From the NCBI GenBank assembly GCA_043749955.1, contig JAYVCM010000134.1, positions 1 through 37,403 of the forward strand: a DNA stretch of 37,403 bases, written 5' to 3'. Each line of letters opens with the position of its first letter. The stretch's first letter is position 1. The stretch is from Limisphaerales bacterium. Lineage in GTDB: Bacteria > Verrucomicrobiota > Verrucomicrobiia > Limisphaerales > UBA11358. A program made the translations under genes and the position numbers. Of this stretch, positions 119-34,067 are shown piece after piece. Below the pieces are notes generated by a model, which worked only from the letters and a program-made list of their open reading frames with translations, searched no databases and was not told where the DNA came from.

Positions 119-3100
119 ATGATTTCTCCCATGCGCCGCCGAAATTTTTCATCATTGCTGCGTCATGGCTTTGCCGTTGGCCTCCCGGCCTGGCTCCTTT
201 TTTTCTCCGCCCCAAAATCCGCGGCCGCGCCGGTGGATTATCTGGTGGACAAGTGGGACACGGAAGACAACCTGCCGAGCAGCACGGTGACGTCCATCGC
301 GCAGACGCCGGACGGGTATCTGTGGGTGGGAACTTACAACGGGCTGGCGCGGTTTGACGGCGCACGGTTCGAGACGTTTGATCCGGTCAACCAGCCGGCG
401 CTGGGGCAGGCGCGGGTGCAGGCGCTGTTTCTCGACGCGAACGGCACGCTCTGGATCAACACGTTTCGCGGCGGGCTGACGTCGTATCGCCAGGGCGTGT
501 TCCGCAACGAATGGCCGAACCAGCCGGCGTTTGACCTGCACACCACGCTGGTGTCGTCGTCGTCCAACCAGATCACCTTTGTCACGCAGTTCGGCGAGGT
601 GCTGCGGCGCGACCTGGCCGCGACCAATGCCGGCTGGAACATTGCTGCGCCGCCGCCGGAGACGCGGCCGATTTTTCAATGTGCCGACGGCGCGGGGCGG
701 CTGTGGTTTCTGGCGCGCGACCGGCACATTTTACAATTCAGCGATGGCCGGTTCCAGGCGCTGGCGGACGACGGCGGCTTGGCGGGCAGCCGGATTTACA
801 CGCTGGTGGCGGATGCGGCGGGAAAAATCTGGGCGGGGGCGGAAAATGAAATTGCCGTTTGGGACGGCCGGCTGTTCCTCGCCATGACGCCGACGAACGG
901 CGCGACGGACATCCAGCCGCAGTCGCTTTTTCCGACGCGGGCCGGGGCGATGTGGGTGCTGGACGGCGAACGGCTGCGCAAAATGTCGGGCCGCGAATGG
1001 GTGGCCGAAGCCGCGCCGTGGCGCGGACTGCTGGGCGCGGCCTCGGGCCGCGCGATGGGCGCGCATGAGGATCGTGACGGCGGCTGGTGGTTTAATCATT
1101 ACGGCAACGGCTTGTTTCACATCACGCCGGAGGGACAGTTTCAGCGGCTGACCTCGCGGGAAAATCTGCCGAGCGACCGCGTGGGCGCGTGGTTCCAGAG
1201 CCGTGACGGGGGCGTCTGGGCGGGGGTGGACCACGGCGGGCTGGTGCGGCTGCACGACCGGCGGTTTCAAGTGATCGGCGTGAACGAGGGCCTGCCCGTG
1301 CGCACGGCGCTGTCCGTCTGTGAAGATGCGGAGGGTGTGATTTGGATCGGCACGGCGGGCGGCGGCCTGTGCCGCTGGACCAACGGCGTGGTCACGCGTT
1401 TCGCCGTCGGCCGGAGCGTGGCGGCGGATTTTGTTTTTGCCATTGCGCCCCGGCCGGGCGGCGGCGCGTGGTTGAGCGCGGCGGCGGGCGAGGACCTTTA
1501 CCAGTTTCAAAACGGCCAGGTGCGCCGCGCGTCGTGGGAGCTGCACGGCATCAAATCCATGCTGACCGACCGGCGCGGGCGCGTGTGGATGGGGACGAAG
1601 AACGGGATCGGTTTTTCCGACGGGAACGAGCGGCATATTTTGGGGACGAATGAAAGCGGCACGTTGCCGGCGGTGCGCGCGCTGGCGGAGGCGCCGGACG
1701 GAACGGTCTGGGCGGGCGCGGACAACGGCACGCTGTTCCGCTGCGAACCGGACAAGCTGACCGCGTTCCGGCCGGAGGACGCGCTGGCGGAGCAGCCGAT
1801 TTATTCGCTGACGGCGGATGCGGAGGGCGTGGTGTGGGCGGGGACGTTTCGCGGCGGGCTGCTGCGTTTCAAAAACGGGGAATTTTCGCGCATCACGGCC
1901 AGGCAGGGCTTGCCGGCGGATATCATCAGCCAGATTTTGGAAGACCGGCGCGGGCGGCTCTGGCTCGGCACACATCAGGGAATTTATTGCGTGGCCAAAG
2001 CCGCGCTGGACGCCATCGCCGATGGACGGGTCCCGCTCGGAGCGGGACTGGATTATGTGGCCTACGGGCGGCACGACGGTCTGCCCGCGCTGGAATGTTC
2101 CGACGGCTACCAGCCCGCGAGCTGGCGCGGCGCGAATGGAAAATTATGGTTCGCCACCGTCAGCGGCGTGGTGGCCATCAACCCGGAGGAAGCCACGGCC
2201 AAGTCGCCGCCGCCGCCGGTCATCATCGAGGAACTGCGCGTGGACGGCGAGGTCGTGAAGCTGCACGAGGAGGGAGGAGGGAAGATGGAAGATGGCCCGC
2301 GTCCGCGCACTTATCCAGCCTCCAGCCTCCACCCTCCATCCGCTCCCATCCGCATCCCGCCGGGACGCAAGCAGTTGGATTTTCGTTTCACCGCGTTGAG
2401 CTTTGACGCGGGCGACAAGGCGCGGTTCCGCTACCGGGTGGACGGGCTGGACACGGACTGGGTGGACGTGGACACGCGGCGGACGTTGCAACTGCGCAAC
2501 CTCGCGCCGCGCGAATACCGGCTGCGCGTCATCGCCTGCAACAGCGAAGGCGCGTGGAATCTGGACGGCGCGGCGCTGACGTTCGCGGTCCGCCCGTTTT
2601 TTTACCAGACGCTGGCGTTCCAGATCATCGCCGGGGTGTTGCTGGTGGCGGCGGTTTCCTTCGGCGTGCGCCGCGCGGCCACGCGGAAATACCGCCGCAA
2701 GCTGGCGCGGCTGGAACAGCAGCACGCCATCGAACGCGACCGCGCCCGCATCGCCAAGGACATCCACGACGACGTCGGCGCGGGCCTGACGCAGATCACG
2801 CTGCTCACCGAACTCGCGCGCCGCGAACCGGAGCAGACGGACGCGAACCTGGAGCGCATCTCCGATTCCGCGCGCACCCTGACCAAGGCGATGGATGAAA
2901 TCGTGTGGGCCGTGGATCCGCAGCACGACACGCTCGACGGCCTGGTGGATTACATCTCGGCCTATGCGGAAGATTTTTTGCGCGTGGCCGGCATCCGCTG
3001 CCGCATGGATTTCCCGATGAACCTGCCGACGACCCGCGTGGAGGCCGAGCTGCGCTACAATCTGTTTCTCGTCGTGAAGGAGGCGTTGAACAACATCGTC

Positions 3101-3460
3101 AAGCACGCGCGCGCGGATGAAGTCTGGCTGCGGCTGCACCTCGGCCCGAAATCTTTCACGCTCGCCATCGAGGACAACGGCTGCGGGCTGGGGGCGGACG
3201 ACGAGTTGCGAGCTGGTGAGTTGAGAGTTGAGGGTTCGGACGCTCAACTCTCAACTCACGGAACTCTCAACTCCAAAGCCGCCCGCCGCCTCAACTCCGG
3301 TTCGGGCCTGGAGAACATGAAGAAACGGCTGGCCGCCGTGGGTGGCCGCTGCGAGATCCACAGCGATGCGGGACGCGGCACGCGCGTGGAGATGACCGCC
3401 GCCCTCCGCCCTGGGGCATCGCCAGTTATGGCGATTGGCGGCAGTGAAACACCGGGGTAG
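119..3460 (+). CDS. Sensor histidine kinase with periplasmic two-component-regulator propeller repeats and Y_Y_Y domain, one TM, HisKA_3-type dimerisation domain and HATPase domain
   Basis: ORF 101..3460. First ATG is at 119, followed by a hydrophobic signal/TM segment. Repeated 'DG.LW.GT..GL' propeller motifs. TM segment FQIIAGVLLVAAVSF. H-box ERDRARIAKDIHDDVGAGLT. N-box VKEALNNIVKHA. G-boxes DNGCGL ... GSGLENMKKR. Start codon is uncertain (TTG 101, ATG 119 or ATG 131). Confidence 0.9.
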   Translation: MISPMRRRNFSSLLRHGFAVGLPAWLLFFSAPKSAAAPVDYLVDKWDTEDNLPSSTVTSIAQTPDGYLWVGTYNGLARFDGARFETFDPVNQPALGQARVQALFLDANGTLWINTFRGGLTSYRQGVFRNEWPNQPAFDLHTTLVSSSSNQITFVTQFGEVLRRDLAATNAGWNIAAPPPETRPIFQCADGAGRLWFLARDRHILQFSDGRFQALADDGGLAGSRIYTLVADAAGKIWAGAENEIAVWDGRLFLAMTPTNGATDIQPQSLFPTRAGAMWVLDGERLRKMSGREWVAEAAPWRGLLGAASGRAMGAHEDRDGGWWFNHYGNGLFHITPEGQFQRLTSRENLPSDRVGAWFQSRDGGVWAGVDHGGLVRLHDRRFQVIGVNEGLPVRTALSVCEDAEGVIWIGTAGGGLCRWTNGVVTRFAVGRSVAADFVFAIAPRPGGGAWLSAAAGEDLYQFQNGQVRRASWELHGIKSMLTDRRGRVWMGTKNGIGFSDGNERHILGTNESGTLPAVRALAEAPDGTVWAGADNGTLFRCEPDKLTAFRPEDALAEQPIYSLTADAEGVVWAGTFRGGLLRFKNGEFSRITARQGLPADIISQILEDRRGRLWLGTHQGIYCVAKAALDAIADGRVPLGAGLDYVAYGRHDGLPALECSDGYQPASWRGANGKLWFATVSGVVAINPEEATAKSPPPPVIIEELRVDGEVVKLHEEGGGKMEDGPRPRTYPASSLHPPSAPIRIPPGRKQLDFRFTALSFDAGDKARFRYRVDGLDTDWVDVDTRRTLQLRNLAPREYRLRVIACNSEGAWNLDGAALTFAVRPFFYQTLAFQIIAGVLLVAAVSFGVRRAATRKYRRKLARLEQQHAIERDRARIAKDIHDDVGAGLTQITLLTELARREPEQTDANLERISDSARTLTKAMDEIVWAVDPQHDTLDGLVDYISAYAEDFLRVAGIRCRMDFPMNLPTTRVEAELRYNLFLVVKEALNNIVKHARADEVWLRLHLGPKSFTLAIEDNGCGLGADDELRAGELRVEGSDAQLSTHGTLNSKAARRLNSGSGLENMKKRLAAVGGRCEIHSDAGRGTRVEMTAALRPGASPVMAIGGSETPG
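3216..3259. repeat. Heptamer-arm hairpin (AGTTGAG/CTCAACT family), copy inside the kinase CDS
   Basis: Perfect 17-bp arms GTGAGTTGAGAGTTGAG (3216..3232) and CTCAACTCTCAACTCAC (3243..3259) around the loop GGTTCGGACG. Further CTCAACT-like units extend to about 3299. Translated in frame as GELRVEGSDAQLSTHGTLNS. Confidence 0.9.
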
Positions 3461-3543
3461 ATTGTGCGCATGACACCACTCCCTTGCCGCCAAGGATTTT
3501 TCCCTGCGCCGGACTTTCGCTGCGGTTTTTCAATTCAAGCCGC

Positions 3544-18453: not shown

Positions 18454-18546
18454 GGATGGGTGGATGAATGGATAAGTGGATGGTTGGATGGAGGAGCGTC
18501 CGCGCGCGAAACCCATTTATCCAACAATCCAACAATCCACAAATCC
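18454..18546. repeat. Tandem-arm hairpin (NNNTGGAT units / ATCCANNN units) between prmC and murA
   Basis: Left arm GGATGGGTGGATGAATGGATAAGTGGATGGTTGGATGG (18454..18491). Spacer of about 21 nt. Right arm CCATTTATCCAACAATCCAACAATCCACAAATCC (18513..18546). Arms are imperfectly complementary. Confidence 0.7.
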
Positions 18547-18549
18547 TGA

Positions 18550-19470
18550 TTATTTGCCGCTCGTTCGCGCGATTATGATTCTGGCGCGGTGAGAGTAGTC
18601 CTCCCGCACGGCTTCGACAACCCACTTTTCACTTTCAAAGATTTTTTTTATGGCGTCCGCCTGGCCGTCGCCGAATTCCACCATGATTTTTCCGTCCGGC
18701 TTGAGGAATGTTTTGGCCTCCGCCGCGAGCTTTCGGTAAAAATCCAGACCGTCCGCCCCGCCATCCAGCGCCAGCCGCGGGTCAAAGTCTCGGACTTCGG
18801 GATCCAGCGTGGCGATCTCGGCGGAGGGAATGTAGGGCGGGTTGCTGACGATCAAATCAAAGCGTAGTGGCACAGGCATCTTGCCTGTGAGTTCATTCTT
18901 TGAAACACACAGGCTAGAAGCCTGTGCCACTACCGGCAACGCCGCAAAACCATCGCCGGCTAAAAATTCAATTCTCTCCCCGACGTTGTTTCGCTCGGCG
19001 TTTTCTTTCGCCAGCGCCAGGGCTTCCGTGGAAATGTCCGTGGCAAAAATCTTTGCCTGCGGACATTTCGCCGCGATGGCAATGGCGATGCAGCCGCTGC
19101 CGGTGCAGAAGTCCAGGCAAGTTGAGAGTTGAGAGTTGAGAGTGGAGAGAAACTGCCAGCCAAGCTCCGCAAGCAATTCTGTTTCTGGACGCGGAACAAG
19201 CACTTGGCGGCTCACAGCAATTTCAAATCCGCAAAACGAGGTGGAGCCAATGATGTGCTGGAGCGGTTCGCGCAGGCCGCGCCGCTTGACGAGTTCACGC
19301 AGCCCGTCCGTTTCCGCCGCCGTCAGCGCGCGGTCGAAGTTCAGATACAATTTCATGCGCGGCATCTTGAGCAGGTGCGCAAGGAGCAGCTCCGTTTGGA
19401 GGCGCGGCGACTCGACATTTTTCTTGCCGAGAAAATCGGTGCTTTTCTGAATCGCTTCGAGGACGGTCAT
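18550..19470 (-). CDS. prmC: Release-factor glutamine N5-methyltransferase (HemK/PrmC), carrying two in-frame repeat insertions
   Basis: MTVLEAIQKSTDFLGKKNVESPRLQTELLLAHLL... is the HemK N-domain. SAM motif LDFCTGSGCIAIAIA. NPPY motif DLIVSNPPYIPS. The ATG at 19470 overlaps the stop of the upstream ORF6N gene (ATGA). The 110-aa upstream extension in the track is not credible. Confidence 0.92.
   Translation of the reverse strand: MTVLEAIQKSTDFLGKKNVESPRLQTELLLAHLLKMPRMKLYLNFDRALTAAETDGLRELVKRRGLREPLQHIIGSTSFCGFEIAVSRQVLVPRPETELLAELGWQFLSTLNSQLSTCLDFCTGSGCIAIAIAAKCPQAKIFATDISTEALALAKENAERNNVGERIEFLAGDGFAALPVVAQASSLCVSKNELTGKMPVPLRFDLIVSNPPYIPSAEIATLDPEVRDFDPRLALDGGADGLDFYRKLAAEAKTFLKPDGKIMVEFGDGQADAIKKIFESEKWVVEAVREDYSHRARIIIARTSGK
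18864..18933. repeat. Family G palindromic element (GTAGTGGCACAGGC ... GCCTGTGCCACTAC) inside prmC
   Basis: 70-nt element with 13-nt terminal inverted repeats and two internal hairpins (CACAGGC-N5-GCCTGTG). Second copy at 33771..33855 in fabD. Translated as VVAQASSLCVSKNELTGKMPVPL. Confidence 0.85.
19120..19147. repeat. Solo arm of the AGTTGAG/CTCAACT heptamer family inside prmC
   Basis: AGTTGAG x3 plus AGTGGAG in tandem on the + strand. No complementary arm nearby. Read on the coding (minus) strand as LSTLNSQLST. Confidence 0.8.
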
Positions 19471-33014: not shown

Positions 33015-34067
33015 ATGAGCAAAACCGCACTCCTGTTTGCCGGCCAAGGCGCGCAAGTCATCGGCATGGGCAAAGACCTCGCCGAAAAATTTCCATCCGC
33101 CCAGGCGTGGTTCGACCGCGCCAATGCCGCGCTCGGCTACGACCTCGCCGGCATCTGTTTCCATGGCCCGGAAGCCGACCTGACGAAAACCGAAAACGCC
33201 CAGCCGGGAATTTTCCTTGTGAGCTGGGTCTGCTTTGAGTTGCTCAAGGAGCGCGTTGGAGTTGGAGCTCAAGCTTTAGCTTGTTCCGCCGCAGACACGC
33301 TAAAGCGTGAACTCCAACTGAAATTTGACGCCACCGCCGGTTTGTCGCTCGGCGAATTCACGGCGCTCACGGCGGCGGGTGCGATGAGTTTTGAGGACGG
33401 ACTGCGCGTCGTGCGCCAGCGCGGAAAATTCATGCAGGAAGCGTGCGACGTGACCAAAGGCGGCATGGCCGCGATCATCGGTCTCGACGAAACGCTGACG
33501 CGCGAAGTTTGTGCCGAAGCCGGAGTGGTGCTGGCGAATTTGAATTGCCCCGGCCAGCTTGTCATTTCCGGCGAGGCGGAAAAAATTGTGAAGGCGTGCG
33601 AACTCGCCAAGGCCAGGGGTGCGAAACGCGCGCTGCCGTTGTCGGTGGCGGGCGCGTATCACTCACCGCTCATGGCCAGCGCGCAGCCGAAGCTCGCGGC
33701 GGAACTGGCGAAAACAAAAATTTCTTTCCCTCTCGTGCCGGTGATTTCAAATGTGACGGCGCAGGCTCATGTAGTGGCACAGGCTTCCAGCCTGTGTGTT
33801 GCTGATGGGGCGGTTGCGGCGACAGGAACTCACAGGCAAGATGCCTGTGCCACTATTTCCGCGCGGCTCGTTGAGCAAGTTTGTGCGTCAGTGCGCTGGG
33901 AAGAATCCATGCGTGCATTGCTGGCGCAGGGTTTTACGCGGTTCATCGAACTCGGCCCCGGCACGGCGTTGAGCGGTTTCATGAAGCGCATTGATAAGAC
34001 CGCGCAGATGCTGAACGTGTCGGATGCGGCGAGCTTGGAGGCGACGGCAAAAACTTTGAACGGTTAG
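33015..34067 (+). CDS. fabD: Malonyl-CoA:ACP transacylase, carrying two in-frame repeat insertions
   Basis: MSKTALLFAGQGAQVIGMG, nucleophile elbow GLSLGEF, RGKFMQEA, MAAIIGL, LNCPGQLVISG, AKRALPLSVAGAYHSPLM. At 350 aa it is about 40 aa longer than typical FabD. The 122-aa upstream extension in the track reads through REPs. Confidence 0.93.
   Translation: MSKTALLFAGQGAQVIGMGKDLAEKFPSAQAWFDRANAALGYDLAGICFHGPEADLTKTENAQPGIFLVSWVCFELLKERVGVGAQALACSAADTLKRELQLKFDATAGLSLGEFTALTAAGAMSFEDGLRVVRQRGKFMQEACDVTKGGMAAIIGLDETLTREVCAEAGVVLANLNCPGQLVISGEAEKIVKACELAKARGAKRALPLSVAGAYHSPLMASAQPKLAAELAKTKISFPLVPVISNVTAQAHVVAQASSLCVADGAVAATGTHRQDACATISARLVEQVCASVRWEESMRALLAQGFTRFIELGPGTALSGFMKRIDKTAQMLNVSDAASLEATAKTLNG
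33255..33318. repeat. Family H repeat inside fabD
   Basis: GTTGGAGTTGGAGCTCAAGCTTTAGCTTGTTCCGCCGCAGACACGCTAAAGCGTGAACTCCAAC. Termini GTTGGAGTT/AACTCCAAC are inverted. Matches 26643..26706. Translated as VGVGAQALACSAADTLKRELQL. Confidence 0.8.
33771..33855. repeat. Family G palindromic element inside fabD
   Basis: GTAGTGGCACAGGCTTCCAGCCTGTGTG ... CTCACAGGCAAGATGCCTGTGCCACTA. Both ends match the reverse complement of the prmC copy. Translated as VVAQASSLCVADGAVAATGTHRQDACAT. Confidence 0.85.

Follow-up and report, generated by a model that had tools for sequence, protein, structure and literature searches.

Repeat DNA at two variable sites of PrmC in a Limisphaerales bacterium: a putative GTAG-tagged REP dimer insertion and a resident heptanucleotide array

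The 37,403-nt stretch of DNA considered here (hereafter the window; positions 1 to 37,403 of contig JAYVCM010000134.1, assembly GCA_043749955.1, from a Limisphaerales bacterium) contains a prmC gene in which two kinds of dispersed repeat are predicted to be read as protein. The first is a 70-nt doublet of repetitive extragenic palindromic (REP) units, belonging to what we call family G, and the second is a short array of tandem heptanucleotides. In the explanation that we favour, with a probability of about 0.78, the family G element is a passenger REP dimer lodged in a tolerant loop, and the array is a resident heptamer tract of native length. An earlier reading of the sequence (the original prediction) had taken both repeats for in-frame insertions; the comparison with orthologs upholds this for the family G element and not for the heptamer tract.

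A palindromic insertion ahead of the NPPY strand

The features of prmC on which the argument turns are as follows.

prmC coding sequence, 18553..19470, minus strand: 306 codons, stop codon at 18550..18552; open reading frame and start codon read from the sequence
Family G element, 18864..18933, minus strand: 70-nt GTAG-tagged REP doublet with heads outward, in frame as prmC residues 180-202 (inverted repeat I14)
Arm 1, 18864..18893, plus strand: GTAG head 18864-18867, stem CACAGGC 18871-18877, loop ATCTT 18878-18882, stem GCCTGTG 18883-18889
Spacer between the arms, 18894..18903: 10 nt, differing in length and sequence in every genome copy
Arm 2, 18904..18933, plus strand: inverted unit ending in CTAC, loop TAGAA; the 5' arm on the coding strand, encoding VVAQASSLCV
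NPPY catalytic motif codons, 18832..18843, minus strand: residues 210-213, invariant in 60 aligned orthologs
Motif I codons (LDFCTGSG), 19093..19116, minus strand: residues 119-126, the S-adenosylmethionine (SAM)-binding loop after strand beta1
Heptamer array, 19120..19149, minus strand: four units, CTCTCAA on the coding strand, encoding LSTLNSQLST in the linker between helix 95-109 and strand beta1

The family G element reads GTAGTGGCACAGGCATCTTGCCTGTGAGTT, then the 10-nt spacer, then AACACACAGGCTAGAAGCCTGTGCCACTAC. Its 30-nt arms are 90% complementary to each other and each is in addition a hairpin with a 7-bp stem and a 5-nt loop; the GTAG at 18864-18867 is answered by its complement CTAC at 18930-18933, as in most copies in the genome. 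Arm 1, which is the 3' arm on the coding strand, encodes ELTGKMPVPL. The translation of the whole element, VVAQASSLCVSKNELTGKMPVPL (residues 180-202), is followed by a single R and then by FDLIVSNPPY, in agreement, to within that one residue, with the original placement of the element directly before the catalytic strand. Folded as RNA, the element forms a single hairpin of -53.1 kcal/mol, against a mean of -25.9 kcal/mol for shuffled sequences (z = -8.5).

PrmC sequences from 93 distinct orthologs of the same genus and order provided the baseline for comparison. The distance from GDG to NPPY is 18 residues in baseline orthologs (e.g. GDGFAALPADTRFDLIVS) and 38 in this protein, and 59 of the 93 orthologs have no insert of any kind at the position of the element (hereafter site 2). 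On a tree of PrmC and MurA (692 columns, two genes) the nearest relatives of this genome are mostly empty there. In the DNA, the 70 nt stand in for about 10 nt missing from the native loop, a net gain of 60 nt, or 20 residues, not the 23 that the translation of the element would suggest. The reading frame is kept in all 98 prmC orthologs, inserts notwithstanding, which argues that the inserts are translated and not bypassed. On this comparison of sequences, the family G element is a genuine in-frame insertion between strand beta3 and the NPPY strand.

A mis-join through the repeat during assembly or binning is the obvious artefact to consider, given a genome in 540 contigs and de Bruijn contigs that break inside the repeated arm. 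We regard it as extremely unlikely. Contigs from four metagenome runs (one study) carry both junctions of the element without a single mismatch, one spanning 18600 into the first arm and the other running from inside that arm, via the spacer and second arm, to 19400 (470 nt of prmC); they break only inside the repeated arm, as is typical of de Bruijn graph assemblies at repeats. The frame is also open across the element, and its flanks are the two halves of one gene.

An AlphaFold2 model of the product, built from 60 orthologs (mean predicted local distance difference test, pLDDT, 78.6), has as its best fold match 2b3t_A, Escherichia coli PrmC from its complex with release factor 1. Residues 181-200 are modelled as coil with a pLDDT of 48-63, between a short helix after beta3 and strand beta4 (204-209), in a surrounding core of 88-96, so that the insert is predicted to form a roughly 20-residue disordered excursion of low confidence.

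Class I methyltransferases have beta1 and beta4 side by side and parallel, with SAM and the NPPY loop at their C-terminal ends. The element precedes beta4 and the heptamer array precedes beta1; the two sites should therefore sit together on the sheet edge opposite the SAM/NPPY pocket, as judged from fold topology. The earlier description of the two repeats as flanking the SAM-binding core is thus accurate for the primary sequence and not for the fold, where textbook topology puts both on the edge away from the pocket.

The gene that carries these repeats is, by its sequence, an intact release-factor glutamine methyltransferase gene. Its product (release factor N5-glutamine methyltransferase; 306 aa, N-terminus MTVLEAIQ) matches the PrmC equivalog TIGR03534 over its full length (268.7 bits, cut-off 199.1), aligns with solved HemK/PrmC structures and retains both catalytic motifs, motif I and NPPY. 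In motif I, Cys replaces the first Gly of most PrmC proteins, a variant also present in orthologs L012, L013 and L015 (L, G and C numbers are our labels for loci, genomes and contigs). The source assembly, a metagenome-assembled genome (MAG), totals 3.95 Mb over 540 contigs at 59% G+C and is 82% complete, and its nearest genomes are uncultured Verrucomicrobiota of the order Limisphaerales (subdivision 3) from soil, peat and sediment.

Family G is a dispersed family of GTAG-tagged hairpins

In 3.9 Mb, the 11-mer GTGGCACAGGC is found 63 times, its complement included, where simple arithmetic predicts about two, which is not chance. The wider class of ACAGGC-loop-GCCTGT hairpins, comprising family G and its sister subfamilies, forms 89 clusters, 36 of them doublets with heads outward, and the CAGGC-N5-GCCTG core is found in 204 units genome-wide, falling into several stem subfamilies that share a set of loops. 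The TAGAA loop form of arm 2 was found once in the genome. Spacers of the 36 doublets vary in length (about 10 to 100 nt) and in sequence; given this lack of conservation among copies, the doublet does not appear to be duplicated whole. A genome-wide comparison of doublets revealed no target-site duplication or shared flanking motif at their ends.

These properties distinguish between the known classes of palindromic repeat. The GTAG tag, the 7-bp stem CACAGGC/GCCTGTG with its 5-nt loop, and membership of a dispersed family with inverted dimers are those of GTAG-tagged REPs, whose units of 20-40 bp have a GTAG or near-GTAG end beside a palindromic stem of 6-9 bp. The differing spacers of the 36 doublets depart from REPINs, which are doublets copied whole with a conserved spacer, and an element of 70 nt in a verrucomicrobial genome whose arms are read in two or three frames departs from the Rickettsia palindromic elements. 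By sequence, then, the prmC element is a dimer of GTAG-tagged REP units, a class known inside verrucomicrobial genes.

We also weighed whether the inserted peptide or its mRNA hairpin has since gained a function, for instance in adjusting the translation of prmC or the stability of its mRNA, or as an additional binding surface. In favour are the high stability of the hairpin and an arm complementarity held at 90%; in ortholog L037, moreover, which carries a doublet of the same type, the stem differs from ours by paired changes (GCACAGGC..GCCTGTG here, GGACAGGC..GCCTGTC there). These paired changes are, however, those of known repeat subfamilies, and therefore reflect family identity and not selection within prmC. 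The 59 orthologs without an insert, the unrelated sequences carried by the remainder and the low-confidence coil of the modelled peptide further make such an exaptation very unlikely.

Gene-borne copies of family G avoid stop codons

A second family G doublet in the window lies in fabD.

Second family G doublet, 33771..33856, plus strand: 86 nt with a 26-nt spacer, in frame in fabD (inverted repeat I12); the TIGR00128 (FabD) match splits exactly at the insert

The 30-mer of prmC arm 1 has an identical copy at 33826..33855 (I4), and arm 2 is 97% complementary to 33771..33800 (I8). The fabD doublet is read as VVAQASSLCV...THRQDACAT. As originally described, its 5' arm is read in the frame used in prmC and its 3' arm in a different one (ELTGKMPVPL in prmC, THRQDACAT in fabD). 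The cause given for this, spacers of unequal length, also stands, with corrected figures: the spacers between the 30-nt arms measure 10 and 26 nt, not 14 and 29, and it is this 16-nt difference that shifts the frame. The further observation that both elements lie in the same orientation carries little information, because a palindromic doublet (GTAG...CTAC) looks alike from both strands and only arm variants set its direction.

For a genome-wide census, coding potential was scored by codon usage trained on the long open reading frames of this genome, and a repeat was counted as intragenic when it lay in a long open frame with coding signal on both flanks. By this rule 25 of 85 hairpin clusters (about 29%) are intragenic, in open frames of 323-1068 codons. 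All ten hosts tested against NCBIfam are housekeeping enzymes (PurL, FabD, ArgS, Mfd, ValS, XseA, BioA, IleS, PheT and FolC), and their profile matches either span the insert or split exactly there. As 62% of random 80-nt windows are intragenic under the same rule, the hairpin family is only about twofold depleted in genes.

The frames in use bear out the proposal that copies in genes have been filtered for freedom from stop codons. Of the three frames of the head arm, one is invariably closed by the TAG of the GTAG tag, and none of the 22 gene-borne clusters that have a head arm (25 gene-borne clusters in total) uses it, the others being frame 0 (V-V/G-A/G-Q-A-S...; 14 uses) and frame 2 (S-G-T-G-I/F-L/Q-P-V; 8 uses). 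The commonest arm form (..CTGTGAGTT) has TGA in frame 0; frame-0 copies of the G1 arm type carry the TGA-free variant ..CTGTGTGTT, and the remaining frame-0 copies come from sister subfamilies, with stems free of that TGA. No frame of the inverted arm is closed by a stop, and for the prmC element only two of the six combinations of frame and orientation are open. The census thus supports the view that the family G copies borne by genes are those that avoid stop codons. Element length modulo 3 was rejected as a test of such filtering: GTAG-to-CTAC lengths in genes are not multiples of 3 (70, 86, 109...), the native loop making up the difference.

The heptamer tract is a resident array of native length

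On the plus strand the array at 19120..19149 reads AGTTGAGAGTTGAGAGTTGAGAGTGGAGAG, three perfect GTTGAGA units and one GTGGAGA variant. Its product LSTLNSQLST precedes LDFCTGSG as originally noted, with a single C between them. The stretch from PRPETE to motif I that contains it (hereafter site 1) measures 23 residues. This is the commonest length among orthologs, shared by 47 of 105 loci, and exceeds that in solved HemK/PrmC structures by only 1-2 residues. In the AlphaFold2 model the segment, at a pLDDT of 88-95, comprises the last part of helix 95-109 and the linker that leads to beta1. The alignment with orthologous PrmC thus separates the two repeats: the protein is 20 residues longer at the family G site, and at the heptamer linker it equals its orthologs in length, a result that the original prediction had itself named as speaking against an insertion.

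The array itself is beyond doubt as a repeat. Period-7 arrays of at least 24 nt number 275 in the genome, against 8, 51, 19, 4, 0 and 0 for periods 5, 6, 8, 9, 10 and 11, and with a threshold of 17 nt there are 729, 158 of them in inverted pairs. The most frequent array lengths are 29-32 nt, and about 32% of the arrays look intragenic, compared with 64% of random 30-nt windows. Tandem 7-nt units over-represented relative to other unit sizes, as in the short tandemly repeated repetitive (STRR) sequences of cyanobacteria, are thus what the prmC array exemplifies. CTCTCAA is a dispersed family of 46 arrays, often in inverted pairs, and in all 11 gene-borne arrays the CTCTCAA strand is the coding strand, because TTGAGAG puts TGA in every frame.

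Among the orthologs, a perfect or near-perfect period-7 run is present at site 1 in at least 21 of 93, and a run of period 5, 6, 8 or 9 in none. At least eight units are represented (CTCTCAA, CCCTCAA, CCTTCAA, CCATCAA, CTCGTCA, CTCGCCA, CCTCTCA and CCCTCAG). Array peptides differ with the unit (LSTLNSQLST, LSTFNLQPST, LVTCHSSLAT), and the constraint therefore acts on the DNA and not on the protein. The prmC heptamer tract is, in short, a real array in a linker of native length, and not an insertion.

A recent insertion of a solo arm of the CTCAACT hairpin family into prmC would account for the identity of the unit with the 46-array family and its frequent inverted pairs, for the stop-free strand being coding in 11 of 11 gene-borne copies, and for the linkers of L019, L029, L073, L079 and L089, which are array-free and 3-4 residues shorter. 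We consider it unlikely. The modal length of the linker already contradicts it; LSTLNSQLST or a near variant is in the same place in L027, L046, L008 and L039; arrays of other units occupy that place in other families of the order (L033, L036); and the segment is confidently modelled as helix end and linker.

Two other readings were rejected. Growth in place by slippage from one native unit would add 21 nt, and the array-free linkers are only 3-4 residues shorter; the units, moreover, belong to genome-wide families. Phase variation, as at a contingency locus, is unlikely because none of the 98 orthologs is frameshifted and the contigs of four runs are free of length variants, contigs being blind to low-level slippage in that they drop rare variants.

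Both sites are recurrently occupied across the order

Apart from a variable C-terminal tail, length variation in the PrmC alignment is confined to sites 1 and 2. Inserts of up to 31 extra residues are found at site 1 in 34 orthologs. At site 2 at least six unrelated palindromic families occur among the orthologs, as follows.

GQASS..TGKMPV, site 2: 7 orthologs
WGERPREP..GSPGVSP, site 2: 9 orthologs
SEGRVPRVP..SQSSSLRK, site 2: 9 orthologs
GVRRHVGAL.SGDMSPHS, site 2: 3 orthologs
GDPNSGTA, site 2: 2 orthologs
ERGRPARE, site 2: 2 orthologs

Mapped on the PrmC and MurA tree, site 2 requires 29 changes of family state, or 20 when scored as presence or absence, with at least 13 forced by well-supported branches, and site 1 requires 19. 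Judged from these alignments, sites 1 and 2 are recurrent repeat slots across the order, a feature absent from the original prediction.

Individual orthologs illustrate how the slots are filled. In L012 (genome G009) one palindromic family, encoding ..EGC[RH][VI]GDPNSGTATR[HR]PS.., is found in both PrmC slots, and L010 and L013 have kept the array and added another element beside it. L037 has a G-type doublet, also of 70 nt, at exactly the same codon and with an equal net gain (20 residues). Common descent was considered for the doublets of L007 and L037, and a sister grouping of L037 with this genome is rejected by the approximately unbiased (AU) test on the PrmC and MurA tree (p = 0.010; the pair was chosen for the test after a tree had been seen). 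For the identical position in L037, target preference, transfer of a segment between lineages by recombination, and error in the two-gene tree are all possible.

Site 1 also changes its occupant between genomes. In G012 it holds a CTTGTCA/CTCGTCA array. Of this CTYGYCA family G012 has 14 loci and G018 has 2, whereas G000 and four further genomes from the genus and order have none, which makes heptamer families genome-specific. The N-terminal slot of mfd behaves likewise: the CTYGYCA family of G012 (SPLATRHSS) lies exactly where G000 has CTCTCAA (STLNSQLST), with further heptamers there in other species, and at another mfd slot an AATCGGC-type array in G000 corresponds to CTCTCAA in G023 and CCTTCAA in G026. 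In prmC and mfd, then, slot and length are conserved and the occupant switches to a family present in that genome. The route of such turnover may be gene conversion, replacement via insertion, slippage or homogenisation within the array. As a separate observation, mfd of G000 (contig C283; loci L159-L166) contains at least five repeat-encoded segments, namely two CTCTCAA arrays, the AATCGGC-type array (NRQSAIGNRQS), a G-type REP doublet and an AGPEAGAP-type palindrome, and in its orthologs the same slots hold other heptamer families or stay empty.

Such recurrence could mean that the slots are targeted, with repeat DNA already in place, or a local feature of the DNA, attracting new hairpins and arrays through homology-driven conversion or transposase targeting, and hence that they are actively refilled. 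In favour of this are the restriction of length variation to two positions in a protein of about 280 residues, with 19-29 state changes each over 93 orthologs; the site 2 changes forced by well-supported branches (at least 13) and the at least six unrelated palindrome families there; the single family in both slots of L012; the same-length G-type doublet at the identical codon in the non-sister lineage L037; the heptamer unit following the resident family of the genome in two genes, prmC and mfd; and the retention of the array beside a newly gained element in L010 and L013. Set against it, the ends of the doublets have neither a target-site duplication nor a common flanking motif, and "the same position" is poorly resolved because the site 2 loop has only five residues. 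The pattern is also what a strong filter acting on a high insertion flux would yield; the tree, furthermore, is built from two genes, and an insert could pass between species by recombination. Active refilling is accordingly a doubtful account of prmC.

The broader form of this idea, that core enzymes of the Limisphaerales contain fixed repeat slots (in PrmC, the loops that lead into the N-terminal ends of beta1 and beta4) rewritten by a targeted or homology-guided process at the DNA level and not by random insertion and selection, we advance tentatively and think improbable as matters stand. Under it, heptamer arrays may be swapped in place, at constant length, for the active family of the genome, and unrelated REP dimers may enter the same codon in separate lineages.

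Proposed explanation

The explanation that we prefer treats the family G element as a passenger and the array as a resident. REP units, small hairpins that are usually extragenic, are thought to be spread by REP-associated tyrosine transposases (RAYTs), and a dimer of such units would have landed in the short beta3-beta4 loop of PrmC. The insert survived, we propose, because the frame in which this copy is read has no stop codon and because the loop can accommodate additional residues. It would then be transcribed and translated as a disordered excursion of about 20 residues and kept as a passenger, probably near-neutral for PrmC function. The site 1 array is one of many four-unit heptanucleotide arrays, in a slot that would have been so occupied since before the related families diverged, its unit being kept homogeneous and replaced at the DNA level to match the resident heptamer family of each genome.

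The transposase in this scheme has a candidate from a sister subfamily. Six Y1_Tnp (Y1-type transposase) genes were found in the genome, each with other palindromes on its flanks. One of the six, a RAYT-like gene on contig C182, is flanked by a sister subfamily with CGTCAGGC stems, as is a comparable gene in G003. The C182 gene (positions 2818-3481, genome G000; 221 residues, PF01797 at 31 bits) has GTAG-tagged CGTCAGGC/CGGCAGGC hairpins on either side; these share loops with family G, and the gene is the nearest candidate for a mobilising enzyme. A single family G unit near a RAYT in G017 was dismissed as incidental, that RAYT having its own palindromes on both sides. A transposase-mediated origin of family G is therefore inferred, as no transposase gene flanked by its units was found here or in 43 loci from relatives.

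Several observations weigh against this explanation. None of the six Y1_Tnp genes in this MAG is flanked by family G units, which is weak evidence because the MAG is only 82% complete, and no RAYT so flanked was found in 43 loci from relatives (30 loci of 24 same-genus genomes and 13 further regions). Both kinds of repeat are depleted in genes merely about twofold relative to random windows, far less than classical REPs. It is not obvious that a hairpin of -53 kcal/mol within an mRNA is harmless, and translation of the insert is itself predicted, from the kept reading frame. Finally, the doublet of L037 is not easily explained by passive filtering alone.

Relation to known repeat systems

The closest parallel is with the GTAG-tagged REPs of Di Nocera, De Gregorio and Rocco (2013; PMC3733652), who describe such repeats inside genes, mostly as dimers encoding 20-30 residues, with a maximum in Opitutus terrae, a member of the same phylum as our genome. 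Shared features are the GTAG head with a short stem-loop, inverted (tail-to-tail) dimers with variable spacers, the intragenic location, and the size of the encoded segment, some of their genes having two inserts. The present case differs in its order (Limisphaerales), in the sequence family of the repeat and in a larger intragenic share, about 29% of clusters, or about twofold below random windows. The passages of that paper that we consulted report no enzyme in which the same two loops hold at least six unrelated families, as those of PrmC do across 93 species.

Rickettsia palindromic elements, as summarised in PMC10969869 (citing Ogata et al. 2000, 2002), are about 100-150 bp long and restricted to Rickettsia, and each family encodes a conserved peptide. 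They too are palindromic repeats that interrupt unrelated housekeeping genes in frame, and their translation adds surface segments seemingly compatible with fold and function. At 70 nt, with two REP units, a free spacer and different frames in different genes, the prmC element behaves like these elements without belonging to them.

With REPINs (Bertels and Rainey 2011; PMC3116915) family G shares two inverted REP units that fold as one long hairpin, in a genome with several Y1 transposases of RAYT type, whose genes each have palindromes of their own on the flanks. It differs in its non-conserved spacers and in that no cognate RAYT was found; REPINs, furthermore, are described as extragenic.

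For the array, the nearest counterparts are the heptanucleotide repeats covered in Rehm et al. (2015; PMC4692102, citing Mrazek et al. 2007), among them the cyanobacterial STRR sequences and the GGGNATC arrays of Xanthomonas and Nostoc. There as here, 7-nt tandem units are strongly over-represented and form inverted pairs, and the same loci are occupied in related species with variable length and sequence, the function being unexplained. Those simple sequence repeats are mainly intergenic and can be long, whereas ours have about four units and a third of them are in frame in genes; here, too, the unit at an orthologous slot switches to a genome-specific family. Our literature search found nothing on heptamer arrays in Verrucomicrobia.

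Taken alone, the prmC insert is a further example of a habit already described, and it is the comparative side, the reuse of slots and the turnover of units, that merits dedicated study. The case shows the extent to which a free-living bacterium tolerates selfish hairpin DNA in essential enzymes, and it bears on gene annotation, on structure prediction for MAG proteins and on the understanding of loop growth. Were the turnover targeted, it would point to an uncharacterised mechanism of repeat maintenance.

Other repeats in and around prmC

The spacer between prmC and murA (18454..18546) is filled by a hairpin whose arms consist of tandem TGGATG-type words of 7-8 nt and their complements. The AGGATGG family comprises 21-30 arrays genome-wide, and nine of its ten gene-borne copies lie in one orientation, though both strands are stop-free. 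A third length-variable spot of PrmC is its extreme C-terminus, where runs of 3-10 serines (..KSSSSSSSSS) are present in L008, L009, L010, L017, L029 and L034 and absent from the protein of this genome.

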